A stretch of 49,899 nucleotides of DNA from contig JAJFGM010000569.1 of the NCBI GenBank assembly GCA_021776145.1, forward strand, positions 1 to 49,899, written 5' to 3'. This stretch comes from Kiloniellaceae bacterium (GTDB lineage Bacteria; Pseudomonadota; Alphaproteobacteria; Kiloniellales; Kiloniellaceae). A program made the position numbers and the translations under genes. The notes beneath the pieces were generated by a model. That model did not search any database. It saw nothing but the letters and a program-made list of their open reading frames with translations, and was not told the DNA's origin. This document shows, piece by piece, positions 3,445 to 46,858 of this stretch (position 1 is the first letter of the stretch; each line of letters opens with the position of its first letter).

Positions 3445-3520
3445 GGGCCCGTAGCTCAGTTGGTAGAGCAGCTGACTTTTAATCAGCGGGTCACAGGTTC
3501 GAATCCTGTCGGGCTCACCA
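3445..3520 (+). tRNA. tRNA-Lys (anticodon UUU), CCA encoded
   Basis: Cloverleaf read by eye. Acceptor GGGCCCG/CGGGCTC (one G-U pair), D arm GCTC-AGTTGGT-AGAGC, anticodon arm GCTGA-CTTTTAA-TCAGC, T arm ACAGG-TTCGAATC-CTGTC, then A-CCA. Confidence 0.9.
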
Positions 3521-3523
3521 TTT

Positions 3524-3565
3524 AAACCCTTGAAGCCAAACACGGTTTCGAGGGTTTTCTTTTTG
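3524..3565 (+). terminator. Intrinsic terminator after tRNA-Lys
   Basis: About 14-bp stem (aaacccttgaagcc / ggtttcgagggttt) with a 6-nt loop, followed by ttctttttg. Confidence 0.6.
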
Positions 3566-3575
3566 TTCCAAAGCG

Positions 3576-3607
3576 ATGTTTGTAAGTATTGTCAGTTATG
3601 TTTGTAA
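3576..3607. repeat. Direct repeat atgtttgtaa x2 (3576-3585, 3598-3607) just inside attL; possible integrase arm-type sites
   Basis: Two identical 10-mers 22 bp apart in an AT-rich stretch between the tRNA and the first phage gene. Confidence 0.3.
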
Positions 3608-3675
3608 CTTTTGTCGTCGCCCGGTGCTATTTTGTTCACGTCGCCATGATATGAAACCCGACGCGGGGCGTGTTG

Positions 3676-4566
3676 TTAGGTCGGGTCTTTGAGGGCATAG
3701 AACAGATCCCAGCCAGTTCTCGAAATGGTGAACTTAGGTTCAAATTCAGTGCTGCCGGCGGTTCTAGGTTGCATCTTAATCAAGCCCGAGATGCGGACCC
3801 TATCCAAAGCCAAATCCGTGCGATCCGCGTCCCACTGAAATTCTGCGACTTCCTCATGTCCGCCCCTTGGGATCCTGACGTAACGCAACACTGCAGGGAT
3901 TTTGGTAGGGTTGGCAATTGAGCTATCTGTTGTTACTTGCCCGAACGGTCGGTAATCCCGGTTCGCTGTCTCAGCGTTACGGGTCCTGTGGCCCGGCAGG
4001 ATTTCTACGAGTGCCCGTCTGGTGCGCTCACCAAATTCATCTTGGGGCTTGGCCAAAACAAGTGACGAGCGGTCTCTTTCAGGCTGATCGAGTGTCAGTA
4101 CATCGATCAAACTCGCGCAAAGCCGAAAGAACCCAGCGTCGTCTGGCGCCATACGTTCCAAAAGATCCTTATAGATCTTTTGGGGCTCAAGAGGGTTTTC
4201 TGGTTTGGTTACGTTGACAAGAAGGTTCGCCCAGAGATCCTGAAGCGTCGGGTCATCCTCGGTTTCAAGGCCTGCCTCATAGCTGTAAGCAACACGGGGC
4301 GGCACCGGAGTGGCAATGGCCAGGTCGATTCCGGCAGCATCTGCTTTTTGTTTCGCCCGCAGATAAATTGAGCGACGATTCTCCAGGCGCCAGTTGACCT
4401 CTTCTCTGAGGTGCACGCTGAGATCTGTGAGAATACCCCATCCTTGTCCAAATGGCCCCAGAAGATTCGCGCCTATGCGTTCCAAATCGCCAAGCTTTGC
4501 CAGCATCTCACGACCAAGTTTGGCCGATTCCTGTACAGCCTTTGCTGTTTCAGCGTGCTCAGACAT
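3676..4566 (-). CDS. Abi-alpha (DUF4393)-like protein; lower-GC cargo gene between attL and int
   Basis: 296 aa. Central segment VPPRVAYSYEAGLETEDDPTLQDLWANLLVNV...YKDLLERMAPDDAGFF matches the family pattern (P.P...le....D..L..(M/L)(W/F)ANLL ... L..(L/M)sP.(D/E)A). GC is visibly lower than the neighbours. Confidence 0.6.
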   Translation of the reverse strand: MSEHAETAKAVQESAKLGREMLAKLGDLERIGANLLGPFGQGWGILTDLSVHLREEVNWRLENRRSIYLRAKQKADAAGIDLAIATPVPPRVAYSYEAGLETEDDPTLQDLWANLLVNVTKPENPLEPQKIYKDLLERMAPDDAGFFRLCASLIDVLTLDQPERDRSSLVLAKPQDEFGERTRRALVEILPGHRTRNAETANRDYRPFGQVTTDSSIANPTKIPAVLRYVRIPRGGHEEVAEFQWDADRTDLALDRVRISGLIKMQPRTAGSTEFEPKFTISRTGWDLFYALKDPT

Positions 4567-4610
4567 TTTTTTGCCGTCTCCGGAGTTGCTGGTTTTGCCG
4601 TTGACAGCTC

Positions 4611-5684
4611 CTATTCAATTCCTTTGCCAGCCGCGTCGAGACGGGCGATGGCGGCGGCGGCGCGGCGCTTCTTGGCGGTGTACTTGCGGACCATTTCGGC
4701 AGTCTTGTGGCCGGTGATCGCGGCGATGGTTGGCCAGTCGCAGCCGAGTTCGTGCAGGACCGTGGCGGCGGTGTAGCGCAGGCCGTGGCTTGTGCAGTCG
4801 TCGGGCAGGCCGGCGGCGCGATAGGCGTCGCGCATTTCGTGGCGGAAGTGGTCGACCTTGTAGGCGCGGCCGGCGTCGGTGACGAGTATCACGACGTTCT
4901 TGTGCTGCTTTAGCCAGGGCTCCAAGGTGTCGCGTAAGGCCTGGCTGGCGGGAATTTCGACCCTTTCGCCAGTCTTTTCCTGGGCGACCTTGATCCAGCC
5001 GTCCGCCGCATAGTGGCGGCGGTCCATGGCGACTACGTCACCGCCGCGTTGTCCGGTCGCGAGTAGCAATTCAAAGGCGGTGCGTTGGCGCGTACCGATT
5101 GCCCAGATGTCGCGGAAGGCGTCGACTTCGTAGGTTTCCCAAGGCCTGTGGCCATCGCCGGTCTTCAGTTGGCGCGGACGCCGGGCCGGGTTCGACCAGG
5201 CCGGTGGCAAACCGAAACGGCGCTTGCGGTCCTCGGCAAAGTTGAGAATGAGGCGCAGGACCGACAGCAGATAGTTGGCGGTGCGCGGTGTTGCCTGGTA
5301 GGCGTCGCGCAATTCGAAGATGAAATCGCGCGGCATGGCGCGGACCTTCAGGTCGCCATAGTGTTCTTTCAGGCGGTCGAGATAGCGGCCGTAATCGCGC
5401 CGCGTCTTCGGCTTCAATTGCGTGAAGTCCGGCGCGGCGCGATAGGCCTCGATCAATGCCGCCAGGGTGCCGGCGCCGGCCGATTGCGGGCCTGTGGCCT
5501 CAAAAGATTCGTGCGTGCGTCGGTAAGCGTCGAGCCATTCCGGCGTGCCGACACTGCCCGGAATGCGAATGCAGAGGCCGTCGCGGCGGTAGTAGGAATA
5601 GACGCGGCCACGCTGGCGGAAAACGTTTATGTGGGGCAGTTCAATTTTGGTCACGCCTTGGCGTTCCTGACTCGCTTCATCCAA
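4611..5684 (-). CDS. int: Tyrosine recombinase / phage integrase
   Basis: C-terminal catalytic region HGLRYTAATVLHELGCDWPTIAAITGHKTAEMVRKYT (H-x-x-R ... H ... Y). An alternative GTG start at 5654 would give a GTGA overlap with the xis stop. Confidence 0.92.
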   Translation of the reverse strand: MDEASQERQGVTKIELPHINVFRQRGRVYSYYRRDGLCIRIPGSVGTPEWLDAYRRTHESFEATGPQSAGAGTLAALIEAYRAAPDFTQLKPKTRRDYGRYLDRLKEHYGDLKVRAMPRDFIFELRDAYQATPRTANYLLSVLRLILNFAEDRKRRFGLPPAWSNPARRPRQLKTGDGHRPWETYEVDAFRDIWAIGTRQRTAFELLLATGQRGGDVVAMDRRHYAADGWIKVAQEKTGERVEIPASQALRDTLEPWLKQHKNVVILVTDAGRAYKVDHFRHEMRDAYRAAGLPDDCTSHGLRYTAATVLHELGCDWPTIAAITGHKTAEMVRKYTAKKRRAAAAIARLDAAGKGIE

Positions 5685-7953: not shown

Positions 7954-8166
7954 TTTCGTTCCCTCATTGTGTTGGCCTAGTGGCCGCGTCCGTAATGGCG
8001 GAGCCTTCCCGTTGAGGTTGACTAGGGAAACACATAAAAATTTGCGCTGTCAACGAAAACTGTTTAAAAAAAACGCTTCAGGTCGATAAAAAATATCGCA
8101 TACGAATCATCTGTTGCGGGAAACAACCAAAGATGATCATCTAACTGGCGAGAAGCTGGAGCGGAA

Positions 8167-8472
8167 ATGATAGACAGCGACGGACAATTACACGTCTCGG
8201 TGTATGTCGATCCGAGTCGGGGTGTCGGATATTGCGACCAGATTGAGGCCGAGCTGGCCGGTGTCGATGTCCGGCGCCTGGGTAAATTCAACGTCGCGGG
8301 ACCGCTGCATCAAATCGCCTGGTTGTGCTTCGACAAACATGAGGGCTTGGTGTTGATCTCTAACGACGATGATCTCGTTTCTGGTTTAGTCTCCGGGACG
8401 TTATTGAAGGCGCGCCAAATCCCAATTGTGCAAGCGAGCGTTGGCCGCTTTTTGAAATCGCTGCTGGCCTAA
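8167..8472 (+). CDS. Hypothetical protein in a low-GC pocket
   Basis: 101-aa ORF with a GGAG-like RBS upstream. The local GC drop (about 7980-8560) suggests acquired cargo. The competing antisense ORF 8064..8291 is less protein-like. Confidence 0.35.
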   Translation: MIDSDGQLHVSVYVDPSRGVGYCDQIEAELAGVDVRRLGKFNVAGPLHQIAWLCFDKHEGLVLISNDDDLVSGLVSGTLLKARQIPIVQASVGRFLKSLLA

Positions 8473-8582
8473 ATGGCACTGGAAGTGCCGATCAAGATAT
8501 AGCGATGGCTCGCACTTAGCAGCTAACTCACAGAAAATCCTATTCAGCGCCCACTCATATTGACAGGCGTGTTTTTTGCCGC

Positions 8583-9389
8583 GTGCACCTGGCGCGCTTG
8601 GGCGCGATTATGTCGCGCGACAAGGCATCGGGAGGGGGCGGTATGCATTTGGTCGAGGGGGTCGCCTTGGAAGACCCCAGGGACAGCATCGCGCTGTTTG
8701 TGAGGCGTGCTGCGGCGCAGGCGCAAGGCGCGGGAATAGATTTTCATCTACACGACGATTTCGAGCGTTACATGGCGGTCAATCGAGCCTGCCGAGATAG
8801 TTGGTACCAGTCGCAGTCGACTTTCGACCCGGCGTTCGGGCGGTTGGACCGGGCCTTTTGGATCGAGGCACGGGCACGGCAGGACGGGCAGTTGGCGGCG
8901 ACATTTGCCGAGCGCTTGTTCGTTGTGCGTGACGGTACATTGGCGGATTTTCTTGCAGAGTTGCGATTGTTTTATGACGAGCCTCGGCGCGATGCGCGTG
9001 CGGGGGAATCCTGCGAAGTGTTTTCTTCAGCCGCCAAGCGCATGCGCGGCCGGATTAGCTACAACGGTGGAATGTGGGTGCACCCGACGTGGCGCCAAGG
9101 TGCTGCACGATTGCGCTTGTCGGCTGTAATGGCCAGGATCTCGCGGGCACTGTCGATATTGCGCTGGCGCCCTGACTATGTGTTCGGCCTAGCCGAGCCG
9201 GTGATCGCGGAAAAAGGGTTGGTCGCCGGCTATGGCTTCCGGCACGTTGAGCCGGGAGTTCGTTGGCGTGGTTCGCTCTATGGCGATGACTACGCGCTAA
9301 CGCTGTGCTGGATGGATCAGCCGGAAATGATCCAAGAAATTAATGATTTCATGCAACTAGCCGACAACTACCCGCTTTCAGCTCGGTAA
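8583..9389 (+). CDS. Hypothetical protein (start uncertain: GTG 8583, ATG 8610 or 8643)
   Basis: 268-aa ORF. GRISYNGGMWVHPTWRQGAARLRLSAVMARISRAL faintly resembles a GNAT motif-A region, but this is not a secure assignment. Its 3' end overlaps the convergent gene 9349..10095 by 41 nt. Confidence 0.45.
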   Translation: MHLARLGAIMSRDKASGGGGMHLVEGVALEDPRDSIALFVRRAAAQAQGAGIDFHLHDDFERYMAVNRACRDSWYQSQSTFDPAFGRLDRAFWIEARARQDGQLAATFAERLFVVRDGTLADFLAELRLFYDEPRRDARAGESCEVFSSAAKRMRGRISYNGGMWVHPTWRQGAARLRLSAVMARISRALSILRWRPDYVFGLAEPVIAEKGLVAGYGFRHVEPGVRWRGSLYGDDYALTLCWMDQPEMIQEINDFMQLADNYPLSAR

Positions 9390-10095
9390 CGCAAATGAGT
9401 GCGGGTTCGCCGCTTTGCATGCGGGCTGGCAGCAGCCCGCGTTCATAGTTGATGCGACGGTCAATCGGCGCGCGTTCGAGCGTGGCGTCGAGCCATTCCC
9501 GGCGCGGCAAGCAGTCCGAAAGGACCGCGCGATAATGGGCCAAGGTCCAGGCATTGTATCTCTGATCTGTATCGTCCAGATCGGCGCGTGCGCCAACGGA
9601 TTTGTCGCACCAATCCGCGCCTAGGGTGCGGCTGATATCGTCGCCGATCCATCGATAGACCAACCCGCCGTCGGATTCGTTGTGTGAGAGGATGGTACAG
9701 TGTTGAAGTAGATTGTTTTCATCCAAGGCGGCAAAAATCTCACCGTCTATTAGGGCGCCGTTGCGGTCCCAGGCTTGGCAGACAGCGCCGATGCGCGTGG
9801 CGGCGTCGCAAGGCTCGCCCGCTGACCAGGCGCGGAAACGAAAGGCCACCGTCGTTAAGTCGAGCGCCTTGAGTTCATGCAAACGGGCTATCGCTTTGGC
9901 CGGCGCAAGAAATGTCTCGTCCATATACCAGCGCGCCGTTTGCACACGGATTCTTGTGTTGTCGAACTCGCCGGATCCGGCCTTGTCGATAGCTTCGCTT
10001 AAGTCTGGCGCGTTAGTTCCATCAAGACGGCATGTCACCGTTAAGACGTCGTGGCGGGTCGCACAGGCTACGGCGGTTTTCATTTCCGTCCTCAT
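9349..10095 (-). CDS. Hypothetical 248-aa protein co-transcribed with the repressor; C-terminal PAS-like region
   Basis: ATGA overlap with the repressor stop (10092-10095). The C-terminal half (LVYRWIGDDISRTLGADWCDKSVG...YRAVLSDCLPRRE...INYERGLLP) resembles the alphaproteobacterial PAS-like fold family. Low certainty. Confidence 0.55.
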   Translation of the reverse strand: MRTEMKTAVACATRHDVLTVTCRLDGTNAPDLSEAIDKAGSGEFDNTRIRVQTARWYMDETFLAPAKAIARLHELKALDLTTVAFRFRAWSAGEPCDAATRIGAVCQAWDRNGALIDGEIFAALDENNLLQHCTILSHNESDGGLVYRWIGDDISRTLGADWCDKSVGARADLDDTDQRYNAWTLAHYRAVLSDCLPRREWLDATLERAPIDRRINYERGLLPARMQSGEPALICVTELKAGSCRLVA

Positions 10096-10496
10096 TTGCC
10101 GCCGCGAATGCGCAAAATCTTGTTTATGGCATTGAATTTGTTAATCGGTATCGTCTCGCGAATCAGAATGCGGACTTTGCCGGGGCCGGCCTGATAAACC
10201 TCAAAAATATCGTCGCCGGTGTCGTTCTCGAAATACTTGTCTATGTCGTCTCCCAGGTCGGCAGGGCCAAGCTCGGCATCGTTTTCGTTGCCGTCGCTCT
10301 TGAAAAAGTGTTCTGGCGGAACGTCGAGAACGTTCGCGATTTTGACCACGGATTCGATGTTGGGCCGCGAGCCGCGTTCCCAATTGCGCAGGCTGGAATC
10401 CGCCAATTCGGCGGCTTTGAGCATCGCCGTTTTGGTGAGTTTCAACTCGCGACGTCGCGCATCGACGCGTGTCAAAAAGTCTTCCACCAGTTTCAT
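10092..10496 (-). CDS. XRE/CI-like HTH repressor
   Basis: LKLTKTAMLKAAELADSSLRNWERGSRPNIESVVKIANVLDV is a classic XRE HTH. It is divergent from the rightward early operon. Confidence 0.85.
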   Translation of the reverse strand: MKLVEDFLTRVDARRRELKLTKTAMLKAAELADSSLRNWERGSRPNIESVVKIANVLDVPPEHFFKSDGNENDAELGPADLGDDIDKYFENDTGDDIFEVYQAGPGKVRILIRETIPINKFNAINKILRIRGGK

Positions 10497-10654
10497 GCGC
10501 TAATAATGACGCATCAGAAAGCATGCGTCACCCGCATAATTTTGCACACTCTAAGCGGAAAACGTTAAATTTATCGTTGACGGTGTTTAAAAAAAGCAGA
10601 TATCGTGCCCGTCACGCGGAGGGATACAACCTTTAGTGACGGGTACTAAATCTT
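10497..10654. promoter_or_regulatory. Divergent immunity-switch region with repeated TGACG/CGTCA half-sites and a -35/-10-like pair
   Basis: Perfect 8-bp inverted repeat tgacgcat(10507-10514)/atgcgtca(10523-10530). Further TGACG-type half-sites at about 10578, 10608 and 10637. TTGACG (10577-10582), 16 nt, then GATATC (10599-10604), facing the 10655 gene. Confidence 0.5.
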
Positions 10655-11128
10655 GTGGTGAAGCCCCCTAAGACCAATACGAGCCGTCTCGCCGGCCTGG
10701 ATCTGCAGGATTTTCAGGACATCGAGGGCGCCTTCGTCGATGCAGCCGAGCGATTCTGCGTTGAGCGTGGTGTTTCTGAAACCGGCCTTCTTAAGGCCGC
10801 CGGCAAGCAGTGGTCAGTGCTGAATCGTCTGCGCCGCGGCGATGGGTGCAGCAGCCGCACCATCCGAGATTGCGCAATTGCGGCTGGCCAGATCGTCGAG
10901 CAGCTTTCGGCGAGTGCCGGCATGTTGCCAGAAATCGAACGGCTGAAAGAACGACGCGCGCTTGCCGATAAGGATATCGATATCGCCGCGCGCCTGACGC
11001 GTGGGTCGGTGTCACACTTACGTCTATTAGGCCGGATCGGTCCCGAGGACGCGGCCAAGCTGCGCGCTTTCCTTGAAAAACACGGGGGCGCGGGGGTCGA
11101 GACCCCCGGGGACTCACCCGATGCCTGA
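10655..11128 (+). CDS. Early-operon DNA-binding protein (Cro/CII position), GTG start
   Basis: 157 aa with two HTH-like segments (GVSETGLLKAAGKQWSVLNRL; DIDIAARLTRGSVSHLRLL). First gene rightward of the switch. Confidence 0.55.
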   Translation: MVKPPKTNTSRLAGLDLQDFQDIEGAFVDAAERFCVERGVSETGLLKAAGKQWSVLNRLRRGDGCSSRTIRDCAIAAGQIVEQLSASAGMLPEIERLKERRALADKDIDIAARLTRGSVSHLRLLGRIGPEDAAKLRAFLEKHGGAGVETPGDSPDA

Positions 11129-15753: not shown

Positions 15754-15830
15754 TGGTAGGACTGACGTTGGCCGTACGTTGTGTTACATGAGGGAGATTT
15801 TGGCAATTCTCTACAACATCAGCGTGCGCC

Positions 15831-18257
15831 ATGACCGACACCGAACAGCTCCTCGAAATAGCGCGAAGAGGCCCAGATGCCTGGAATCGATGGCGACGGG
15901 ACAACCGCGACGAGGTGGTGGACTTTTCAGGCGTCGATTTTCGTCAAGAGGACCGTGTAGGCATCAATTTTTTGGGGTTCAAGTTCGGTAATGACGCTTG
16001 TTTTAGTGGCGCCAAATTTGGGGATCACAGCCGTTTCCGAGGTGTTCTTTTTGGAAACAACGCGGATTTTAGCGACGCGGTATTCGGTGCAGATGCCCGG
16101 TTTCAAGAATCAAAATTTGGCGCTGGCGCTAACTTCGAAAGGGCGAATTTCTACGGGGAGGCCCACTTTGAAGGCACAAAATTCGGCGATGAAGCCCAAT
16201 TCCGTAATGCAATATTAGGGCAAAATACTCATCTGGGCGGCACAACTTTTGGGAAAAACTCACGGTTCGATGGTGCAAATTTCGGTATTTGTGTTGAGCT
16301 GAAGGGGGCGATATTTGGAGAAGCTTCTTGTTTTCATAGTTGCAAATTCGGTAGAGAGGCCCTGTTTGATAATGCAGTTATAGGAGATGATTCGCGGTTC
16401 GAGGGCGCTGAGTTTGGTGACTTGGCGCAATTCCGCGGTACAAAGTTTGGGTCCCGTGTTCGTTTTGATAATATAATTATTGGATCAAAGGCGAATTTTG
16501 ATACCGCATCGTTTGGCGAGGAAACGCAGTTTTGTGGCGCGACGTTTGGCGGAGAAACCAATTTTGAGAATGTCATAATTGGCGATCGGGTCGGATTCAA
16601 AGGTGTAAAATTTGGAGATTCAGCAAATTTTGAGGCCACGACATTCGGAGAATATGTCGAATTTGATGCCTCAATTTTCGGCGATCTTACGTCTTTCAGG
16701 CACGCGATATTTGGGAACGATACCAGATTCGAGGCCGCGAAGTTCGGAGCCCGGACACGGTTTGAGGGTGCGACTTTTGGTGATGCCGCATGGTTCGCTC
16801 GCGCGACGTTTGGGGACTCAGCTAACTTCGCAGACGCGAAGTTCGGTGCGAGGGCGCGGTTTGAGGGCGCGGAATTCGGAAAAATAGCGTGGTTTAAGGG
16901 CACGAAGTTTGGCGAAGCGGCGCAGTTCGAGCGCGCGCAATTCGAAGATCAAAGCTGTTTCCAGGACGCGATATTCGGAGATGATGCTTGGTTCCACTCA
17001 GCAGAATTTGGCTACTCGCCAAGGTTCGAAGGCGTGATTTTTGGGCGCGACGCCAATTTTGGTGCCGCGTCGTTTGGAGCAATAGCGCGCTTCAGGGGCG
17101 CAACATTTGGGAACAGCGCAGATTTCGAAGATTCAACTTTTGGGGAGTCGGCCTGGTTCCAGGATGCGAAATTCGGGAGCATGGCCGGGTTCGAAGGTGC
17201 TTGGTTTGGTCCCTCAGCCCGGTTTGAAGGCGTGCAATTTGGGTTTCTCGCCAATTTTCAAGGGGCAACCTTCGAAAGTGAGGTGCGGTTCCATGGAGCG
17301 GCTTTCGAGCGTAAGGTCATTTTCGATGAGGTGACTTTCTTGGGGCCAGTTCACTTTGGCAGTGTGTCAGGAGTTGCTGAGTACGCCGACAGTCCAGAAA
17401 CGGAAGTGTCGTCGTCTGGGAGTGCGACAAACGATGCCGAGAGTGGCGCCCAACTTCATGACGCTGCCGCGAGGGTGGGTTCGGTTTCCTTTGCGGGAGC
17501 GCGGTTCGAAGGACTGGCCTATTTTCACGACTTGGATTTTCGCGGCGAAGCCAATTTCTCGAACGCCTGTTTTTCCGCTCCGCCCGATTTTCGTGCAACG
17601 CAACACCGCGAAAATCTCGATTGGATCGGTATTAAATTCGCGTTCGGCCCGCATGTCCGCTTTGGCCGCGCTTCCATTAATTGGAGCTGGACAGCTCAAA
17701 ACGACACAATCACACGCCTGCGACGGCTGAGAGGCATTGCAAACGAAATTCATGCGGTTGATGCGGAGCGCGACCTCTTCATCCTTGAACGCCAAGCGGA
17801 GCGTGGCGTCTTCTGGCGCGACTGGTGGCGGGGGGGATGGGGTTCATGGTTTACAGGGTGGTGGCGTCCGCTGTCTGCAACGGTGCTGATGTTTCTCTAT
17901 GTCTGTACTTCCAATTGCGGCCGCAGTTTATTGCTGCCCCTGGGATGGCTGGCTGCTTCGAACTGGGGTTTCTACCAGCTGTATGGATACCTCTATACCG
18001 TTCTGATCGACCGCCCATTGTTTATCGCGGTCAAAAAGGCGTTGTTTGACTTGACTTTTGCCAGCGCTTTACCGTTCGGCGCGACCGCCCGCCCGGCCTT
18101 TCAGTCTGCGATCAAGGTCCTCTTCGAGCAGGACAGCGGCAGCGCGATCGATATCCCATGGCAAATCCAAGCCGCTTCGGCAGCACAAGGAATCACAAAT
18201 CTCGTGCTCCTCTTCCTGCTCGGCCTCGCACTGCGCAACTACTTCAAGTTCAGGTAA
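15831..18257 (+). CDS. Giant pentapeptide-repeat protein fused to a C-terminal multi-TM, channel-like module
   Basis: 808 aa. The N-terminus LLEIARRGPDAWNRWRRDN is a typical pentapeptide-protein leader. About 95 consecutive pentads have a 10-residue super-period (AKFGDHSRFRGVLFGNNADF...). The C-terminus has hydrophobic helices (LSATVLMFLYV, LLLPLGWLAASNWGFYQLY, ITNLVLLFLLGLAL) and an LFDLTFASALPFGAT segment. Low GC. Confidence 0.9.
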   Translation: MTDTEQLLEIARRGPDAWNRWRRDNRDEVVDFSGVDFRQEDRVGINFLGFKFGNDACFSGAKFGDHSRFRGVLFGNNADFSDAVFGADARFQESKFGAGANFERANFYGEAHFEGTKFGDEAQFRNAILGQNTHLGGTTFGKNSRFDGANFGICVELKGAIFGEASCFHSCKFGREALFDNAVIGDDSRFEGAEFGDLAQFRGTKFGSRVRFDNIIIGSKANFDTASFGEETQFCGATFGGETNFENVIIGDRVGFKGVKFGDSANFEATTFGEYVEFDASIFGDLTSFRHAIFGNDTRFEAAKFGARTRFEGATFGDAAWFARATFGDSANFADAKFGARARFEGAEFGKIAWFKGTKFGEAAQFERAQFEDQSCFQDAIFGDDAWFHSAEFGYSPRFEGVIFGRDANFGAASFGAIARFRGATFGNSADFEDSTFGESAWFQDAKFGSMAGFEGAWFGPSARFEGVQFGFLANFQGATFESEVRFHGAAFERKVIFDEVTFLGPVHFGSVSGVAEYADSPETEVSSSGSATNDAESGAQLHDAAARVGSVSFAGARFEGLAYFHDLDFRGEANFSNACFSAPPDFRATQHRENLDWIGIKFAFGPHVRFGRASINWSWTAQNDTITRLRRLRGIANEIHAVDAERDLFILERQAERGVFWRDWWRGGWGSWFTGWWRPLSATVLMFLYVCTSNCGRSLLLPLGWLAASNWGFYQLYGYLYTVLIDRPLFIAVKKALFDLTFASALPFGATARPAFQSAIKVLFEQDSGSAIDIPWQIQAASAAQGITNLVLLFLLGLALRNYFKFR

Positions 18258-18264
18258 CGCGCAT

Positions 18265-20073
18265 CTATTCGAATGGCCGCCCAAAATAGACCAGTGCCCA
18301 TAGTGCCAGCAGATAGACACTCACCAGCGACTGTATCCCCGAGACGACGCGCACCCAGCCTCTTGGCCGCAGGGTGTATTCTCGCGACTGCAGCCGGAGG
18401 ATCCAGTTCCCAACGTTGAGATCTCGCCAGCCGATATGGAAGGCCGAAAGGACGCTGAAATATAGGCCGTACCAGAAAATCGCGAGCAAGTTGTTGCGGT
18501 GGAATCGATCGACGATTGCGTCTTCTGCCAACACCGTGCCCTCTTCGGTCTTGCTGTCTTCGTCCAATCTCCCTTCCGGCCAAACCTGGAATAATCCGCC
18601 CCGGCCGGAATGCTTCGGCGATTGGGCAATGGGGTAGGTGTAAACACACCAAAAGACCAGGATCAGGAACCCGAGTATTTCTATCGGCCGCCCCGGGGAA
18701 TACCCCCAATCGCTCGTGAGTTCGAACAAAGTGTAGCTGAAAGCGCTTTCGATGGTAGGCGCTTTGCGCCGTTCGTTCCGCTTGATCAAAAAGGTCAGGT
18801 ATCTTTCTGCCTCCCGATCACCCGCCTCTTTGAGCTTCTTGCGGACTGTCACAAGCCCTTCCGGGAAATCAGCCGATCCCAGGGGCTCGAAGGCTGCGAG
18901 ATCCAGTAAATCCACGCCTACCAAAGAGGCATTGCTGAGTAGAGAGCCAGAGAAGATCGCGGCGGCGAGTTTGCTGTACTGTAAGTTCGCGCCTCTAAAG
19001 TCGGTATTGCTCAGATTCGTGTCTATGAGGTTGGCAGATTCGAGGGTGGCGTTCTGCAGCTCGGCGCGCTGCAGGTTGGCCTTTTGCAGCTCCGCGCCGG
19101 ATAGATCGGCCTTTTGCAGATTGGTGAAGCTCAGGTTGGCCATTTGCAGATTTGCGCGGAATAGGTTGGCCTCCTGCAAGTTGGCGAGGCTCAGGTTAGC
19201 CTCTTGCAATCTGGCGAGCTCTAGGTTGGCCTTCTGCAGATTGGCCTCGAATAGGATCGCCCCTAGCAGATCGGCGCGGCGGAGGTCGGCCTTTAGCAAC
19301 ACGGCTTCATCTAAGTCGGCATTCTGCAGGTTTGCGAAGCGCAGGTCGGCCTCTTGCAGGTTGGTGCGGCTCAGGTTGGCCTTTTGGAGTATTGTGCGCT
19401 GCAGGCTGGAATTTTCCAGATCGGCGTGCTGCAGGGCGGCCTTTTTCAGATTGGCGCTGAATAGGTTGGCCTCTCGTAGATTGGCGAAGAATAGGTTGGC
19501 CTCTTGCAGATTGGCGCCGCTCAAGTTGGCGTTTTGCAAGTCGGTGAAGCTCAGGTTGGTCTTTTTCAGGTCGGCGCGGGTCAGGTTGGTCTTCTGCAGG
19601 TTGGCCTTGAATAGGATCGCCCCTAGTAGGTCGGCGCGGAATAGGTTGGCCTCTTGCAGATTGGCGCCGCTCAGGTTGGCCTCTTGCAGATTGGCGCCGC
19701 TCAAGTTGGCGTTTTGCAAGTCGGTGAAGCTAAGGTTGGCCTTTTTCAGGTCGGCGCCGATCAGGTTGGTCTCTTGCAGATTGGCGCGGCTCAAGTTGGC
19801 GCCGCAAAGAATGGCCCGACCTGCTTTTGCGGAACCCTTCGACCAGTCTAAGTGGGCCTCAAGAATTGATTTCAGTTCTTGCGGGGTGATTCCTCTTCCA
19901 GCATAAGGACACTGTTCGTCCTTTGAATCGGCGCTCACTGTCGGCCCGGTGAAGCCGAACAAACCCGTCAAGATAACGGCAGCGCCAACGGCCGCTAAAA
20001 TCTGACGTTTCCACCGATGCTTCACATCACACTCCAGTGCGTGGCGTTCTTCGACCCTCGAAGCAAACCACAC
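18265..20073 (-). CDS. Pentapeptide-repeat protein with N-terminal membrane anchor/signal and C-terminal channel-like module
   Basis: 602 aa. N-terminal hydrophobic ILAAVGAAVILTGLFGF. About 60 canonical A(N/D)Lxx pentads (ANLQEANLSGANLQEANL...). The C-terminus has TSDWGYSPGRPIEILGFLILVFWCVY, LYFSVLSAFHIGWRDL and a final TM helix, IQSLVSVYLLALWALVYF. Its stop lies 7 nt from the stop of the convergent gene. Confidence 0.9.
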   Translation of the reverse strand: MWFASRVEERHALECDVKHRWKRQILAAVGAAVILTGLFGFTGPTVSADSKDEQCPYAGRGITPQELKSILEAHLDWSKGSAKAGRAILCGANLSRANLQETNLIGADLKKANLSFTDLQNANLSGANLQEANLSGANLQEANLFRADLLGAILFKANLQKTNLTRADLKKTNLSFTDLQNANLSGANLQEANLFFANLREANLFSANLKKAALQHADLENSSLQRTILQKANLSRTNLQEADLRFANLQNADLDEAVLLKADLRRADLLGAILFEANLQKANLELARLQEANLSLANLQEANLFRANLQMANLSFTNLQKADLSGAELQKANLQRAELQNATLESANLIDTNLSNTDFRGANLQYSKLAAAIFSGSLLSNASLVGVDLLDLAAFEPLGSADFPEGLVTVRKKLKEAGDREAERYLTFLIKRNERRKAPTIESAFSYTLFELTSDWGYSPGRPIEILGFLILVFWCVYTYPIAQSPKHSGRGGLFQVWPEGRLDEDSKTEEGTVLAEDAIVDRFHRNNLLAIFWYGLYFSVLSAFHIGWRDLNVGNWILRLQSREYTLRPRGWVRVVSGIQSLVSVYLLALWALVYFGRPFE

Positions 20074-20263
20074 TCTGACGCTCTAGTGCTAGCCACTTTC
20101 AACCAATAGGGGTGTGATCATTCGTACAGCCTAACGCGCCCATCTCAACTACGCCCGCTCCACCTTTCGCGGCCTCCCTTCCCGCCGGGCCGCGGGCCGA
20201 AAAATCGACGCCGCAATTCCCCTTGACTTCCATGAACTCTATTGACAATCTCTCACCACGTTG

Positions 20264-20304
20264 AAAAGCGCCCGGCCGGAGTGAAGATCCGCCGGGCGCT
20301 TTTG
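20264..20304. terminator. Bidirectional-looking intrinsic terminator in the 435-bp spacer
   Basis: aaaagcgcccggc...gccgggcgcttttg: 10-bp perfect stem (20267-20276 / 20291-20300) flanked by an A-run and a T-run. Confidence 0.5.
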
Positions 20305-20508
20305 TGTCTGGCCGGCGTGTATCGCGCGGGCCTGTCTCCACGTTCGAAGCGACAAACCACCGACGGCCGCTCGCTTCCGCGACGCGGCCGTCGACGCCTT
20401 TTTTTGTTTAGGATAAGTTGGGCATTCGTTGAACCAAGACGGTTGCTAATCTGTAATGACGCGGCAACGCTAGTCAGATGGAACGGACAGGGCTTGGAGG
20501 TAAGCACG

Positions 20509-21171
20509 ATGGCCGATAGCGGTGCAGCATTCTGGGCCGCCTTAGCCGCGTCATTCTCGGCGATCGCATCTGTCTCGATCTTTTTCGTTCAGCGACAAAA
20601 CCTGATCCAGTCAATCCGACCTGAAATTGATCTGCTTGACGTGAGTAGGCCAGAGGAAAGCAATGAACTCGTTTTCAAAAAGATTAAGAACATCGGCAGA
20701 GGCACGGCCCAAAGTATCCTGATTAATTCACTGGCTCTGCGTGGAACCGCACACTTATCGACCATTCATGTTCCAATCCTAGCAGCCGGCGACGAAGCGC
20801 AGGTTGATGCGAATCTTCGCTTTTATTGGAACAACGTTGAGCAAACGTCTGATAACAAGACAATTCCAGTGGCCATTAAGATTTCTTACTTGGATACAAG
20901 CGGTAATCGCTACGAGACAAGATACAATCTCCTAGCGTTTCAGTCGGTAGAGAAGACCATAATCGCTTGGTCGGTGGCGGCCCCGGGAGTATTGCTGGAC
21001 GACCGTACGACTATTAGGAAGTCTATGCGATTTCTGAAGTTTTCGGCTTGGCTTCAGCGAAGAATCACGAAGATCGGATACAGATACCCGCGGTTCAAAA
21101 ACATATATGAACGAGTTCACATACTCCTCTCCGAAACAAAGCGCCGAATTCGTTCAGCCTTAATTGGCTGA
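20509..21171 (+). CDS. Membrane-anchored hypothetical protein (N-terminal TM plus beta-rich domain)
   Basis: 220 aa from the ATG at 20509, with a GGAGG RBS at 20496-20500. N-terminal FWAALAASFSAIASVSIFFV. Low GC. The longer ORF from 20242 is Arg-rich upstream junk. Confidence 0.6.
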   Translation: MADSGAAFWAALAASFSAIASVSIFFVQRQNLIQSIRPEIDLLDVSRPEESNELVFKKIKNIGRGTAQSILINSLALRGTAHLSTIHVPILAAGDEAQVDANLRFYWNNVEQTSDNKTIPVAIKISYLDTSGNRYETRYNLLAFQSVEKTIIAWSVAAPGVLLDDRTTIRKSMRFLKFSAWLQRRITKIGYRYPRFKNIYERVHILLSETKRRIRSALIG

Positions 21172-21355
21172 CCGAAGTACCCAGTCGACCCATTAAAACC
21201 GAGGTGGGTCCTTCCAGCGCCGTCGCAGTGCTAAGCGGGGCGGCAGCGCGACGCAAAGGCGCGGTTTCCAAGGTTCGGGTTCTTTCACTTTTCGTTTCTT
21301 CTGATGTCCAGCAGAGCGGGCGGCTATCTCATCCCACGGACAATGAGCGGCCCTG

Positions 21356-24750: not shown

Positions 24751-25500
24751 TTAGGGCTGATTTCTCGGATTGGGAATGCAAGCATCTGTGAGCGAGCGCC
24801 CAAGAGGCATCAGTTTGAGTTCCATGACCCTTCTTACACTAGTTTGTTTGCCGCTGGCATCGAAGATCGGTTCCTGAGGCTCTATAATTTCGTAACAGGC
24901 GAGGCCCAAATGATACAAATGTTCAGTATAGAAATTCAAATTGACTGGGACAAAAAGCCGATCTAACGGAAAATCATATGGGATCTCTACTTTGAGATTT
25001 GTCCAATAGGACGCTTTTGATGATTTATTTCGTTCTGGGTTTATATCGAGTGTTTCTGTTTGTTTGTATGTACGCGTTCTTAGGAGTTCTAATATGATCG
25101 CCTCGTCGCTTGAAAGCTGACTTATTAACACCGGAAAGGACGGGTGCGCCTTACCATAGTTCTCGCGATCCATCGAACCGCTGAGAAGATTGCTAAACAT
25201 CTCATCAATTGGCGTATCTTCGGGCTCATAGCGTATACCTTCTAGCGACGGCCCTAAGATTTGCGGTGGCGGTGAAACTCTTCTCTCTTCTGGAATTTTG
25301 CGAACTGATTTTTCAAGAAAGCGTCGGTATCTATCTTGACTAGCGGACGCATATTGAAGAAAAAACAAGGCAACCCTTATTGTCTTTGCGCTATCCTCTA
25401 ACAAATGTCCAACTTGTTTAACCACCGGCCTCGCCAAGTCATCATAGATTGATTTAACAGGTAAGATCTTTGCCAGTGATGTGATCGGATCGTCGGTCAT
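24751..25500 (-). CDS. Abi-alpha (DUF4393)-like protein; low-GC cargo gene between terL and gpW
   Basis: 249 aa from the ATG at 25500, with a GGGAGG upstream (the ORF track starts at a TTG at 25518). SPPPQILGPSLEGIRYEPEDTPIDEMFSNLLSGSM...HPSFPVLISQLSSDEAIILELL is the family signature. Opposite strand to the late operon. Confidence 0.7.
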   Translation of the reverse strand: MTDDPITSLAKILPVKSIYDDLARPVVKQVGHLLEDSAKTIRVALFFLQYASASQDRYRRFLEKSVRKIPEERRVSPPPQILGPSLEGIRYEPEDTPIDEMFSNLLSGSMDRENYGKAHPSFPVLISQLSSDEAIILELLRTRTYKQTETLDINPERNKSSKASYWTNLKVEIPYDFPLDRLFVPVNLNFYTEHLYHLGLACYEIIEPQEPIFDASGKQTSVRRVMELKLMPLGRSLTDACIPNPRNQP

Positions 25501-25648
25501 AGCATAGAAGCCTCCCAATCATTCTCTTACAGAACCGTTTCTGGGACTCTAAGCGCAACAGGTCAATCTTGCCATAAAGGTCGCCGCGTTTCTAGCCGCC
25601 CGGCAAAGCATGTTCGTCATCAAAGAAAACCAACCTGCGTAGGTATTC

Positions 25649-38542: not shown

Positions 38543-38892
38543 TGAATAAAGCGCCCGATGCCGCCGAGGTCGAGGCCCCGGAAGACAGCGTCACCGTGAC
38601 GCTGAGCACACCCGTCAAGGCCTTCGGAAAGCGCGACGACACCGTCACTCTGCGCCGGCCCCTGGGCAAGGACATCAAGATCTGCGGCTTTCCCTTGCGG
38701 ATCCATGGCGACGGCTCCTTCGAGTTCATCGCGCACATTATCGCCCGCTACATCGAGCGCCTCGGCGGCATGACGGCGGGGGCCGTCGACGCCCTGCCGC
38801 CGGAGGACTGGATTGCCCTGCAGAGCGCGGTGACGGATTTTTTCAAGACGTCCCCGACCTCTGGTTCCGAGGACAGCCCGGAACTGGACTAA
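38542..38892 (+). CDS. Tail assembly chaperone (zero-frame product)
   Basis: ATG overlaps the tube gene stop (TGATG); an alternative GTG lies at 38533. Position between tube and tape measure. Contains a slippery heptamer near its 3' end. Confidence 0.75.
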   Translation: MNKAPDAAEVEAPEDSVTVTLSTPVKAFGKRDDTVTLRRPLGKDIKICGFPLRIHGDGSFEFIAHIIARYIERLGGMTAGAVDALPPEDWIALQSAVTDFFKTSPTSGSEDSPELD

Positions 38893-39032
38893 AGCTCTTC
38901 GAGGAGGCCGTCGGGGACCTCGCCTATCTTTTCCATGCCCTTCCGCACCAGCTCCTCGAGCGCGGCCTGGACGACATTCTTTTCGACCTGCTTCAGGCAC
39001 GCAGGATTGTTTCAGAGCTGCAGAAAGCGTGA
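38542..39032 (+). CDS. Tail assembly chaperone, -1 frameshift extension product (G-T / E-E' analogue)
   Basis: After the slip the frame reads FFQDVPDLWFRGQPGTGLKLFEEAVGDLAYLFHALPHQLLERGLDDILFDLLQARRIVSELQKA*. Confidence 0.55.
38838..38844 (+). other. -1 programmed frameshift slippery heptamer T_TTT_TTC
   Basis: In the zero frame the sequence reads gaT TTT TTC aag. The -1 frame is open from here to TGA at 39030-39032. Confidence 0.6.
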
Positions 39033-39306
39033 GGCTAGGGGTGATTGCGGAAAAGGACCAAAGGACACCCCAAGCAATCGGCCAGAATGTCAGTTTACCG
39101 TCCCAAACTCACCGTCGTCGAAGTCTGGGCAGCAGGTCCGGGTATAGCCAGAAGCGGGCCTTTGTTGGGTAGAATGCCACTCCTTCAAATACCCAGATGC
39201 CCTATTTCTCTTACCAAATCCTGGATCCGCTTGAGGGAGGGCAGGTCACGCCGCCACCGCCTAAATCGACCCGAGGGCCGCCACCGCGGGGTTAAGAACA
39301 TTGCCC

Positions 39307-40434
39307 TTACTCTTGTCTCGGTTTTTCTCTCCGTCTTTCTTGGATTTCCAGAAAATCTCGGGCCGCGGCAAGTTGGTCTTCCGACATCTCCACTTCCATC
39401 ATCTCTTTGAACTTAGGTTCCCACCTATTGATGATGGCATTAAGGGAAATCTCATCGGTTCGCCCGACATTAACTTGGCGTTTGATCAAGGGGGCCAATT
39501 CAGGCGCGAGTTCTTTGTCCTCGAACATTCTCTTGAATATCCAAAGATAGACATCGACTAATTCTAAACCGGCGCTTTCTGTCCCTGAAGAAAAGCCAAT
39601 TTCTGTTTGAGGCATGCCCCGAAAATCGAGCGCAGGAAGTCCTGGACCATTCGCCAGGTTCTCCCCACTCAATCTTGCGTACCAATCTGCGGTTTGTGCT
39701 TGTGCCTTGTTGAATTGAGATTGTCGATCCACAACGATTCCCAACGACTTTCGCGAGGAGTTTAAGAGTCGCTGCGCTATTCCGATCATCACGCTTTGAA
39801 ACCCGATGGCATTCGGCATGACGGAAACAGCGTCAGATTTACTTTGGACGTTGTAGGAGACCTCGTTGGTATTTTCGATGGTCCACTTAAGCGCATCCGT
39901 CACAATTTCTCGGGTGCGCGCATCAGGTAGGTTTTGGGAACGCCGGACTAATTCCTCGCAGACTTGCCTTAGTATTTCTTCGGCCTTCGCGTTGTTTGGA
40001 GAAATTCGGGCAGCCCACGCAGCCCTTAAAAGCTTCTCGTCAAATAGCTTTGCCAGACGCACTAGCAGCATATAGCGAAGAGGCGTCCAATAGGAAGCCC
40101 AGGGGACTGCTGGGTTCATTCCCTGGTCGAAAACTTGGTCAAAAAAACAAATGGCTGCGTGGTCGATCTTCTGGAGGCGGTAAAAATCGAACCGGAGATC
40201 GAATTTCTTCTGCACCCTGACTAGATCAGGTGCAATTTCGCTCAATCCAGCGTTTCCGATTTCACTGGCATGCAGGCGGTCAACGCCTAGTCGTTTTCGG
40301 GTCTTCACCAAAAATGGTTCGGCAAGGACATCCAAATTTGCGCGACTGCAAAGCGTTCCATAGAAAAGCATCGGCTGATCGCGGTCGAACAGGTTTGGGC
40401 CGGTATGGCCGCTTTCATCCACGTAAAAATACAC
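39307..40434 (-). CDS. DUF3800 domain protein; low-GC cargo gene between tail chaperone and tape measure
   Basis: 375 aa. N-terminus MYFYVDESGHTGPNLFD is the DUF3800 signature (hydrophobic-DESG). Opposite strand to the late operon. Confidence 0.8.
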   Translation of the reverse strand: MYFYVDESGHTGPNLFDRDQPMLFYGTLCSRANLDVLAEPFLVKTRKRLGVDRLHASEIGNAGLSEIAPDLVRVQKKFDLRFDFYRLQKIDHAAICFFDQVFDQGMNPAVPWASYWTPLRYMLLVRLAKLFDEKLLRAAWAARISPNNAKAEEILRQVCEELVRRSQNLPDARTREIVTDALKWTIENTNEVSYNVQSKSDAVSVMPNAIGFQSVMIGIAQRLLNSSRKSLGIVVDRQSQFNKAQAQTADWYARLSGENLANGPGLPALDFRGMPQTEIGFSSGTESAGLELVDVYLWIFKRMFEDKELAPELAPLIKRQVNVGRTDEISLNAIINRWEPKFKEMMEVEMSEDQLAAARDFLEIQERRREKPRQE

Positions 40435-40695
40435 GGTGCAAACTCTCTAGCAGTCGTCGCGGTAAGGCAGAAGCTTTCCAAATGAACGCAAATGCACGAG
40501 CGACGCAAGTATAGGTTAGAGGCTTTGCAGCCTTGGCCTGCCCCTACGAACGATACCAGTTCTATATTAGAACCGTTTGCATTGGGAAAGGTCGATCAGG
40601 CCGCAGCCCCCGTGTAGCAGAGGTCGGCTCAGGGTCAAAAGCCGCGGTCCCAACTGACACGCCCGTAGGGGTAAAGTACCCCAGATAGTGGACAT

Positions 40696-40856
40696 GGATT
40701 TTTCGGCCAATCCTGGGCCAATGGCTCCAGGGAGTGCGCGACGAATCCGTAAAACGCCTCGACGATACCGCCGGGGACCTCGCTTACTTCTTTCGTGTGT
40801 TGCCGCACCAGGTCCTCGATCGGGACCTGGGCGACATCATCTTCGACCTGAACTAG
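40696..40856 (+). pseudogene. Remnant second copy of the chaperone slippery-site and frameshift-extension segment
   Basis: ggatttttcgg (one T fewer than at 38835), then at the same spacing IFRPILGQWLQGVRDESVKRLDDTAGDLAYFFRVLPHQVLDRDLGDIIFDLN*. 40770-40850 aligns ungapped with 38910-38990 at 62 of 81 positions (my count). Confidence 0.6.
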
Positions 40857-40866
40857 GGGATCCGAA

Positions 40867-45970: not shown

Positions 45971-46858
45971 TTATGAATGAGACTGAGGTCTGTCGTATAG
46001 CCATCGTCGATATTTTTCGAGACCAGGAAGCGCCTCTCGTAAATGTCTGGAGGGTCTTTCAGCTCGCACCAAGCTAACTAACGTTGGCACCGACATCGTT
46101 GCAACTGCCTGTCCAGCGTCGGCGCCCTGTGCTCGTTGGAGATGGTGAAACGTTGCCTTCGTCATGAATTCTGAGGAACTGGCCTTCAGCTCGCCGATTA
46201 GCCGATAGGTGAACTGATAGACAAGATTCCCATATTCGATCACCTCTTCGGCGGACGGAATGTATCCCTTGTGAATTACGTCATTTCTGAACGCACTCCA
46301 AGTCGGTGTATCTCCCCGGCTACGGCCATCCAACTCGGGTCTTGCCTCAAGAATTAGGGGCTCAAGCGGCTTTTTGTTTTCAACAAGGTAGAAAAACAGG
46401 AAGGCGCCAATTTGTCGTTCAGATTGCTTAGAAATCGGGGCCCACGCTTCGCTGAACTGCTCGTAGGTGATTCCATGCTTGAGCGAGACGACGAGAATGT
46501 AATACTCGAAGAAACGTTCAAGCGATGCGGCGGTGCTTGAGACTGCCTCCCGTGTATAGCCGTCGAGCAAAGCCATTGCACCCAAATCAAATAGAATCTC
46601 AAATTTCTGCTCTTGGATGGCCGTGACGGTAACGTGACCCCGAGAGCACGTGACCTCGTATAGACCGTCATCACGCAATTCGACCGAATTTGCCAACTCG
46701 GGCGGCTGTCCATCCACTTCAAGGCACTTCATGCAGGAGGTGCGCAGTCGCATTGTGTCCTTCCGTGCAACTTCTTCTCTTCGTGGCCGGCATTGACCGA
46801 GTTTTTTGACGCGCCGGTCTCCTCGAATGAACGACACGCCGTCAACCTCGATTTTCAT
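45971..46858 (-). CDS. Zinc-ribbon plus HEPN-motif protein; low-GC cargo gene between gp45 and gp46
   Basis: 295 aa. An alternative start at 46753 gives 260 aa; both starts have RBS-like purine runs. N-terminal CMKC...CSRGH. C-terminal WSAFRNDVIHKGYIP contains an R-N-x3-H (Rx4H) HEPN-type motif. Opposite strand to the late operon. Confidence 0.55.
   Translation of the reverse strand: MKIEVDGVSFIRGDRRVKKLGQCRPRREEVARKDTMRLRTSCMKCLEVDGQPPELANSVELRDDGLYEVTCSRGHVTVTAIQEQKFEILFDLGAMALLDGYTREAVSSTAASLERFFEYYILVVSLKHGITYEQFSEAWAPISKQSERQIGAFLFFYLVENKKPLEPLILEARPELDGRSRGDTPTWSAFRNDVIHKGYIPSAEEVIEYGNLVYQFTYRLIGELKASSSEFMTKATFHHLQRAQGADAGQAVATMSVPTLVSLVRAERPSRHLREALPGLEKYRRWLYDRPQSHS

Follow-up and report, generated by a model that had tools for sequence, protein, structure and literature searches.

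The soluble pentapeptide-repeat proteins Qnr, MfpA, AlbG, and McbG are cytoplasmic, dimeric DNA mimics of about 180-220 amino acids that have no membrane domain, and the characterized DNA mimics are helices with a 20-residue coil. A membrane-anchored protein of the same class, HglK of Anabaena, serves the deposition of heterocyst glycolipids and has its transmembrane (TM) segments at the N-terminus and its repeats at the C-terminus. Outside this class, two kinds of phage-related membrane proteins are of interest here, i.e., HalA, the homotetrameric, oligo-dA-gated, depolarizing effector channel of the Hailong anti-phage system (Tan et al. 2025, via PMC13434031 and PMC13276650), and the superinfection-exclusion proteins, such as SieA of phage P22, which are inner-membrane proteins encoded by prophages in accessory slots (PMC10883804; reviewed in PMC11436027). 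This article deals with three adjoining genes, ORF A, ORF B, and ORF C (open reading frames), of a prophage in contig JAJFGM010000569.1 of a Kiloniellaceae bacterium; the whole stretch that was analyzed, 49,899 nt in length, will be called the window. The proteins of ORF A and ORF B are unusually long for the two large, uncharacterized families to which they belong (families A and B), in which a beta-solenoid rod precedes one shared C-terminal membrane module.

That the two proteins end in the same module had been claimed in the original prediction, made from the sequence without database searches. The relationship is not visible by pairwise comparison, since BLASTP of the two C-terminal regions is not significant, and comparisons of shallow profiles reach a probability of only 1.9-3.6%; it does appear at the profile level. 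With a deeper family-A profile, hhalign gives a probability of 75.5% and an E-value of 2.4e-5, and a hidden Markov model (HMM) of the A module, searched against 120 B-family proteins, has collinear matches of up to 32.8 bits in most of them. These cross-matches span a charged helix next to the membrane (A: DAERDLFILERQAERG; B: DREAERYLTFLIKRNERR), the motif S-(D/N)-x-G-(R/x)-S-x-x-(R)-P with the TM helix that comes next, and, in some proteins, the last TM helix as well. On this profile evidence, the two modules, of about 180 amino acids, are related as remote homologues.

The order of the elements can be followed along both modules. In ORF A, the charged helix RLRRLRGIANEIHAVDAERDLFILERQAERG is succeeded by an interfacial stretch rich in Trp and by a hydrophobic helix; the TSNCGRS motif comes next and leads into a TM helix, after which stand the ALPFG helix and the last TM helix, whose end reads LALRNYFKFR. 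In ORF B, the charged helices RKKLKEAGDREAERYLTFLIKRNERRK lead into an amphipathic helix, behind which the LTSDWGYSPGRP motif precedes a TM helix; a loop in the cytoplasm then connects to the LYFSVLSAFHIGWRDLNVGNW segment and the last TM helix, whose end reads YFGRPFE. Several invariant polar residues lie in or beside the TM helices, namely those of the G-R-S/P signature and a Gln that opens the last TM helix, and every family-invariant residue is kept in the modules of both ORF A and ORF B. AlphaFold2 (AF2) monomer models are all-helical for the B module, with a predicted local distance difference test score (pLDDT) of 85.5 and a predicted template modeling score (pTM) of 0.81, and for the A module, with a pLDDT of 80. 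When the isolated modules were scanned, Pfam returned no family even at E <= 10, and neither NCBIfam nor PADLOC returned one. From positive-inside counts and from the conserved Cys pairs in the consensus sequences, we infer a common core in which one TM helix crosses the membrane inward and is followed by a loop in the cytoplasm, then by a middle helix and a periplasmic loop, and finally by a last TM helix that leaves the C-terminus inside.

Ahead of the modules stand the rods, which differ in kind. ORF A consists, from N- to C-terminus, of a cap, MTDTEQLLEIARRGPDAWNRWRR, the 11-residue repeat rod, an acidic and Ser-rich spacer, a few terminal repeats, and the membrane module. Its only Pfam match is PF13576 (Pentapeptide_3), at 5.7e-68 and with 225.4 bits over 12 stretches, above the gathering threshold of 27 bits, and ORF B matches PF00805 (Pentapeptide) at 7.2e-78. 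The earlier description of both proteins as pentapeptide-repeat proteins is therefore upheld by the models, whereas the units of ORF A are 11-mers. ORF A had been described as some 95 pentads with a 10-residue super-period, which its residue autocorrelation contradicts: the values are 0.37 at lags 11, 22, and 33, 0.155 at lags 5 and 6, and 0.024 at lag 10. The array is made of 42 units of 11 residues in perfect register and with zero indels, the spacing of the [FILV]G pair is 11 in 31 of 43 intervals, and the strict 5-residue periodicity of the PF00805 class is thus absent. Likewise, lag 11 or 22 is the autocorrelation peak in 100 of 105 family-A members, so that, as judged from these sequences, the 11/22-residue period is a trait of the family. 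The PF13576 entry describes pentapeptides, whereas the family-A arrays are strictly 5+6 = 11, and the entry is silent on the membrane module. By analogy with the geometry of pentapeptide helices, the rod would show a 5+6 face pattern with coils of about 22 residues. At the DNA level, Tandem Repeats Finder (TRF) reported no high-identity tandem repeats in the array of ORF A, and hence no recent duplication is seen there.

The N-terminus of family A is a conserved soluble cap, ARQGxxAWNxWR, and the family has no signal peptide; because the homologues have this N-terminus in common with ORF A, the start codon of ORF A is correct, and because the cap is soluble and no signal peptide precedes it, the rod is predicted to lie in the cytoplasm. 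This location bears on one alternative, according to which ORF A alone is a membrane-tethered DNA-mimic rod that sequesters or protects a gyrase, a nuclease, or a restriction enzyme for the prophage, with the module just localizing it. We give this explanation a small chance. It draws on the predicted cytoplasmic rod without signal peptide, on the match to a pentapeptide-class model, and on the report that a phage pentapeptide protein counters the Sucellos defense system (bioRxiv 10.1101/2024.07.02.601686). However, ORF A does not score against the Qnr and MfpA models, its 5+6 repeat geometry is unlike the 20-residue coil of the characterized mimics, the conserved membrane module would be left unexplained, and the family is solitary on chromosomes.

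ORF B combines a signal peptide, a pentapeptide rod predicted to be periplasmic, and the C-terminal membrane module. Where about 60 canonical pentads had been expected, 61 L-x-x-A-(N/D) pentads in perfect register are counted (residues 89-393), with autocorrelation peaks at every multiple of 5, i.e., the strict 5-residue units of the pentapeptide class. Regarding the start of the protein, a GTG at 20025, internal in the longest form of ORF B, is preceded by GGAG with a 6-nt spacer and is likely the translation start; the protein read from it begins with MKHRWKRQ-ILAAVGAAVILTGLFGF-TGPTVSA / DS. The N-terminal hydrophobic segment, formerly taken for an anchor, reads in this translation as a cleavable Sec signal peptide, with a hydrophobic core and the TVSA/DS site. 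Comparable signal peptides are present in 29 of 64 full-length-like family-B members by a crude hydrophobicity test, and a CxxC often follows. With such a signal peptide, the rod of ORF B is predicted to stand in the periplasm, and an exported rod could not mimic DNA toward cytoplasmic enzymes; the proposed decoy for such enzymes is accordingly inapplicable to ORF B. The opposite sidedness of the two rods is backed by the signal peptides and CxxC of family B and by the loop Cys pair of family A. In family A, unlike in family B, the helix ahead of the motif would cross the membrane, which would account for rods on opposite sides.

Compared with Qnr, MfpA, AlbG, and McbG, ORF B has repeats of the A(N/D)LXX class and is expected to fold into a right-handed quadrilateral beta-helix. 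Other features differ: ORF B obtains 79 bits against each of the Qnr and MfpA models, below their cut-offs of 240-360, and ORF A has no match and a period of 11; furthermore, ORFs A and B are proteins of 586-808 amino acids with membrane modules, and ORF B is predicted to be exported. HglK resembles both in joining a polytopic membrane domain to a long pentapeptide array and in its link to the envelope, whereas its domain order is the reverse of theirs, and the likeness noted is one of architecture.

The array of ORF B also contains a 180-nt unit in 1.9 copies with 90% identity, at 19453-19785 on the minus strand (TRF), which shows that the array has recently grown in frame. The duplication invites the explanation that the genes are cargo without a present function, either in decay or in selfish expansion, whose exceptional lengths would come from replication slippage in the repeats. 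In agreement with it, ORF A is the longest among 102 full-length-like family-A representatives, ORF B is longer than the database matches of a word-indexed search with its module, which are of at most 394 amino acids, and the composition differs among the three genes. On the other hand, the frames are intact over 2.4 kb (A) and 1.8 kb (B), the 42 units of the one array and the 61 of the other keep a perfect register, recent repeats at the DNA level are absent from ORF A, and the modules have lost none of their family-invariant residues; functionless cargo is, in our estimate, a slim prospect. The coordinates of the features are collected in Table 1.

Table 1. Coordinates of ORFs A, B, and C, of their parts, and of the gaps between them, numbered from the first letter of the window
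Feature	Position	Strand	Basis or remark
ORF A, 808 aa	15831..18257	+	ORF list; Pentapeptide_3 5.7e-68; shared N-terminus; no signal peptide in family
ORF A repeat array	15981..17366	+	42 units x-F-G-x-x-x-x-F-x-x-A, residues 51-512
ORF A membrane module	17688..18254	+	Residues 620-808; conserved family, AF2 all-helical
Gap between the convergent A/B stop codons, 7 nt	18258..18264		No terminator structure
ORF B membrane module	18268..18843	-	Residues 411-602; conserved family, AF2 model
ORF B, 586 aa	18265..20025	-	Likely GTG start 20025; 602 aa if GTG 20073 (longest ORF)
ORF B pentapeptide array	18895..19809	-	61 pentads, residues 89-393 in long-ORF numbering
ORF B predicted Sec signal peptide	19930..20025	-	Sequence, hydrophobic segment 23-47
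ORF B-ORF C gap, 435 nt	20074..20508		Sequence; hairpin 20361-20405 (+)
ORF C, 220 aa	20509..21171	+	N-terminal TM helix + beta-rich domain

Both modules have many relatives. A word-indexed search gave 18 relatives of the A module and 356 of the B module, and when the A-module profile was used in an exhaustive HMM search, it returned at least 2,578 cluster representatives at E <= 1e-3, with 140 at E <= 1e-30. Most family-A proteins are 430-670 amino acids long with the module at the C-terminus, and Pentapeptide_3 is present, without any other domain, in 87 of 90; their surroundings are housekeeping genes. Family B was located at 126 loci in species-representative genomes, including Alphaproteobacteria, Desulfobacterota, Nitrospirota, Acidobacteriota, and other phyla. 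Its 449 neighboring ORFs fall into 413 clusters, and this clustering found no conserved partner gene near the family-B loci. The Pfam census of 149 immediate neighbors comprises 101 families, essentially all housekeeping, with only Resolvase (2 matches) and TnpB (1) as mobile-element families.

Mobile surroundings do occur within family B. The three closest relatives on long contigs lie among transposases, or by a TerL-like gene and an integrase fragment, and in IMG/VR 3 of 2.9 million contigs bear family B, two of them directly downstream of TerL, and none bears family A. The site by TerL is a recurrent slot for family B as a moron, i.e., as accessory phage cargo. On phage-like contigs, the family-B gene was seen immediately 3' of the large terminase gene at 1347-2459 of contig L002, 3874-4983 of L003, and 7001-7906 of L091; the order on L002 is TerL, a small gpW-like ORF, a B homologue with signal peptide, and portal. 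For family A, a gene for a MazE-type antitoxin (9248-9484 of contig L084) was noticed directly downstream of, and convergent with, the gene of the homologue P0002, on three contigs with the same protein. It is the sole toxin-antitoxin-like neighbor noticed and is probably coincidental.

A possible function of the module is suggested by one recurrent resemblance. The NCBIfam model of HalA, NF051894, matches 12 of 74 B-family members (best E-value 7.7e-4) and 17 of 90 A-family members (best E-value 3e-6), where it is the most frequent family, and it is the only recurrent non-repeat NCBIfam match in both. The A and B consensus modules fall on common HalA positions, 224/230-280 of 338, so that the core formed by a helix, the S-D-Y-G-(R)-S motif, and a TM helix aligns in both; one protein, P0168, matches positions 79-274 of the profile. 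Further points of likeness are the large soluble domain ahead of the C-terminal TM domain and the phage-related setting. There are also clear differences. The soluble part of HalA is an oligo-dA-binding cytoplasmic crown, whereas those of ORFs A and B are solenoid rods, and Hailong requires an adjacent HalB nucleotidyltransferase, whereas families A and B are without a conserved neighbor. In particular, no neighbor, and hence none of HalB type, is conserved in the 68-87 loci of either family, and the flanking genes in the window are those of phage replication and tail completion, with orf15079 left out of the Pfam scan. In addition, the soluble domain of ORF B is predicted to be periplasmic, and no structural match was recovered for the A or B module. 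All in all, judging from these profile matches, homology of the modules to the TM region of HalA is somewhat more probable than not.

The original prediction had proposed a channel-type membrane effector on other grounds, namely a degenerate K+-channel pore helix and filter seen in LFDLTFASALPFGAT (A) and LYFSVLSAFHIGWRDL (B). Searches of Pfam and of PDB sequences, and with Foldseek, lend that likeness no statistical support; Ion_trans_2 matches 2 of 74 B-family relatives, at E 0.024. K+ channels stood atop the Foldseek list of the B module and were rejected as evidence (E >= 1.1, TM-score <= 0.32), and the list of the A module is mixed. The broader idea of a channel-type effector fares better than its filter, since the recurrent weak HalA matches give it some unexpected support, and channel function of the module stays unproven.

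With these elements, the explanation that we put forward, tentatively and at less than even chance, is that ORF A and ORF B are rod-controlled, oligomeric, HalA-like ion-conducting effectors that guard the lysogen and were acquired separately as cargo. The module would oligomerize into a HalA-like ion-conducting assembly, and a ligand of the rod would control the state of this assembly. Each protein, expressed from the prophage, would act alone as a lysogen-protecting membrane effector, with ORF A sensing the cytoplasm and ORF B the periplasm, and the outcome would be either membrane depolarization, i.e., abortive infection, or a hindered genome entry, i.e., superinfection exclusion. Oligomerization, ion conduction, gating by the rods, expression in the lysogen, and the effect on phages are what we infer, whereas the analysis itself establishes how the genes are built, the periods of the repeats, the signal peptide, the homology of the modules, how large the families are, where their genes lie, and the foreign composition. 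By analogy, the known role of phage pentapeptide proteins in phage-defense conflicts (bioRxiv 10.1101/2024.07.02.601686) may count in favor of this explanation. With superinfection-exclusion proteins of the SieA type, the two proteins would have in common a role only, as sequence or structure similarity is absent and those proteins have no solenoid rods.

Several observations weigh against such lysogen-guarding effectors. The HalA matches have 13-18 bits where per-protein scores are shown, below the family cut-off of 250 bits, and cover only about 50 residues, TM helix included. PDB sequence searches with a single module, the B-module profile, both consensuses, and the most HalA-like relative recovered neither HalA nor another channel, and Foldseek gave only E-values above 0.6, whether the two AF2 models were compared with the PDB or the B model with BFVD. 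PADLOC-DB v2 has no match for ORF A or ORF B, and a scan of the block for the sigma-70 consensus found no promoter match. Neither module occurs in 50,697 GenBank phages, and the homologues of both families are overwhelmingly solitary chromosomal genes amid housekeeping neighbors, so that the supposed association of homologues with prophages or defense islands largely falls away. Such solitary contexts, without a HalB-like or other conserved partner, point to a general role in the cell and away from dedicated immunity.

Much of this agrees with the main alternative, which we likewise regard as possible, on the doubtful side of even, and in which the module is a mere polytopic anchor or scaffold without conduction, the families are housekeeping proteins that organize the envelope or the membrane, in a manner comparable to HglK, and the copies in the prophage are carried incidentally or for lysogenic conversion. 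Any effect on phages would then come from steric or binding action of the rods, e.g., by a blocked periplasmic entry component. Several points speak for it: the families are widespread among phyla, where their members are single genes with varying housekeeping neighbors, no structural or sequence match to any channel is significant, no defense family is matched, and an exported rod with signal peptide suits an envelope role. However, a module of about 180 amino acids with many invariant polar and Gly/Pro residues exceeds the needs of anchoring, the HalA signal turns up in each of the two families independently, and family B has repeatedly been captured by TerL in phage contigs.

The effector explanation can also be widened. 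The module might define an unrecognized superfamily of HalA-like oligomeric channels, with thousands of members across phyla, gated by solenoid rods from either side of the membrane, of which the prophage would deploy one each as independent sensors. The sidedness would depend simply on the first hydrophobic helix, which would cross the membrane in some members and not in others; ORF A would sense cytoplasmic phage DNA-binding proteins, and ORF B would sense periplasmic entry components. We consider this wider version unlikely.

To place the genes in their setting, we need to consider the prophage that carries them. The ORFs were taken from a program-made list, and GC content and GC content at third codon positions (GC3) were computed for each region or gene. 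The window is a prophage, as had been proposed, and includes genes for an integrase, a replication initiator, a tail-completion protein, TerS, TerL, a portal, and a major capsid protein; the block of ORFs A, B, and C is placed between the replication initiator and the tail-completion and TerS genes. The lower GC content of the block was confirmed, with 0.49-0.57 over 16-21 kb versus 0.63-0.70 in the backbone, and GC3 is 0.55 in ORF A, 0.71 in ORF B, and 0.53 in ORF C versus 0.78-0.91 in the prophage backbone. With this foreign composition (GC3 0.53-0.71) and its site between conserved phage modules, as is typical of morons, the block is compositionally foreign prophage cargo. Relatives of the backbone that would permit an empty-site comparison were not found, as megablast against GenBank phages returned none, TerL identity stays below 35%, and IMG/VR gave no match.

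The prediction of a convergent pair, with ORF A (808 aa, +) and ORF B (602 aa, -) ending 7 nt apart and no hairpin between their stops, agrees with the ORF list and with the folding of the junction, which is not significant (z -0.71). The pairing itself is not conserved: 87 family-A loci contain no B module, ORF-C-like gene, or phage genes, and 80 family-B loci contain no family-A partner and no ORF-C-like gene, and the expectation of a recurring three-gene module is thereby contradicted. Given the lack of partner loci, the orphan status of ORF C, and the differing GC3, the trio would be a chance juxtaposition of separately acquired morons. The block looks assembled by separate acquisitions rather than as one co-evolved system, with the pairing of A and B accidental, and a dedicated three-gene system is unlikely. 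Its most explicit version, one anti-phage system of A, B, and C in which DNA-mimic decoy rods are coupled to a K+-channel-like pore, has in our judgment a very slim chance. Three facts may be cited for it, i.e., the genes adjoin in a prophage cargo slot, the soluble Qnr and MfpA are DNA mimics whose models ORF B matches below threshold, and a link to the HalA channel exists, if a weak one. They are outweighed by the absence of the A/B/C grouping from all related loci (0 of 167), by the orphan ORF C and the unequal GC3 of the genes, by the predicted periplasmic location of the ORF B rod, by the non-significant K+-channel similarity (Ion_trans_2 in 2 of 74, E 0.024; Foldseek E > 1), and by the 11-residue period of the ORF A rod, since no rod of this period is known to mimic DNA.

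ORF C has a GGAGGT ribosome-binding site ahead of its ATG at 20509 and one N-terminal hydrophobic helix, and the earlier description of the gene at 20509..21171 as an N-terminal TM helix with a beta-rich domain stands. Its matches are limited to a sub-threshold CARDB in Pfam (E 0.03-0.06) and to ZorD in PADLOC (E 0.031). Homologues besides its own sequence were not found, nor does any occur at the 167 loci of families A and B; by these searches, ORF C is an orphan without a detectable link to A or B. The Logan contig L094 (SRR15505515, 4,760 nt), assembled from a public read set, carries the 5' end of ORF B, ORF C, the tail-completion gene, TerS, and TerL, and its ORF C product is identical to that of the window, with the gene call there starting upstream (296 aa). 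Since it bears the matching segment, the phage or prophage has also been picked up in sampling elsewhere. The gap between ORFs B and C presumably holds their divergent promoters. It contains on the plus strand, at 20361-20405, a terminator-like element made of a 14-bp G+C-rich hairpin and U7 (dG -33.9 kcal/mol, z -4.39), about 100 nt upstream of ORF C and with no plus-strand gene ahead of it. This hairpin might serve ORF C as an attenuator or leader, or might form the 3' end of a small RNA. An Rfam scan of the gap gave no significant match, with ar14 on the opposite strand as a sub-threshold one (E 0.014).

Elsewhere in the window, a tRNA-Lys at 3445-3520 and the integrase gene (together 3445-5684) mark one end of the prophage. 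An att repeat of the tRNA-Lys 3' end was not found within the window, and the prophage probably reaches past position 49,899. Further low-GC islands (GC 0.51-0.55), with at least one ORF each, lie at 8000-11000, 24751-25518, 39000-41000, and 45971-46858, and are probably additional morons. The island at 39-41 kb (ORF 39307-40434, minus strand) is bounded by a 101-nt direct repeat, 38890-38990 and 40750-40850, of 75% identity.

Pentapeptide-repeat proteins are abundant and, to our knowledge, a function is known only for the small soluble DNA mimics. The combination described here, i.e., a rod, a module of about 180 amino acids related to the HalA TM region, and two sidednesses, was not found described in the libraries and literature searched. 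The analysis shows that thousands of repeat-rod proteins have one conserved membrane module that is missing from Pfam and NCBIfam, that the rods of module-bearing proteins can, by prediction, face either side of the membrane, and that the one recurrent database link of the module leads to the effector channel of an anti-phage system solved only recently. The 11-residue period established for ORF A is relevant to the modeling of such rods. The A and B genes are real, uncharacterized cargo, for which a role as HalA-like gated channels or in exclusion is plausible but unproven. If the HalA link is false, the locus holds ordinary prophage morons for membrane proteins of unknown role; if it is true, it would provide a first testable hypothesis, namely that of ligand-gated depolarizing channels, for a large orphan family, and would extend the HalA-type effector beyond Hailong.

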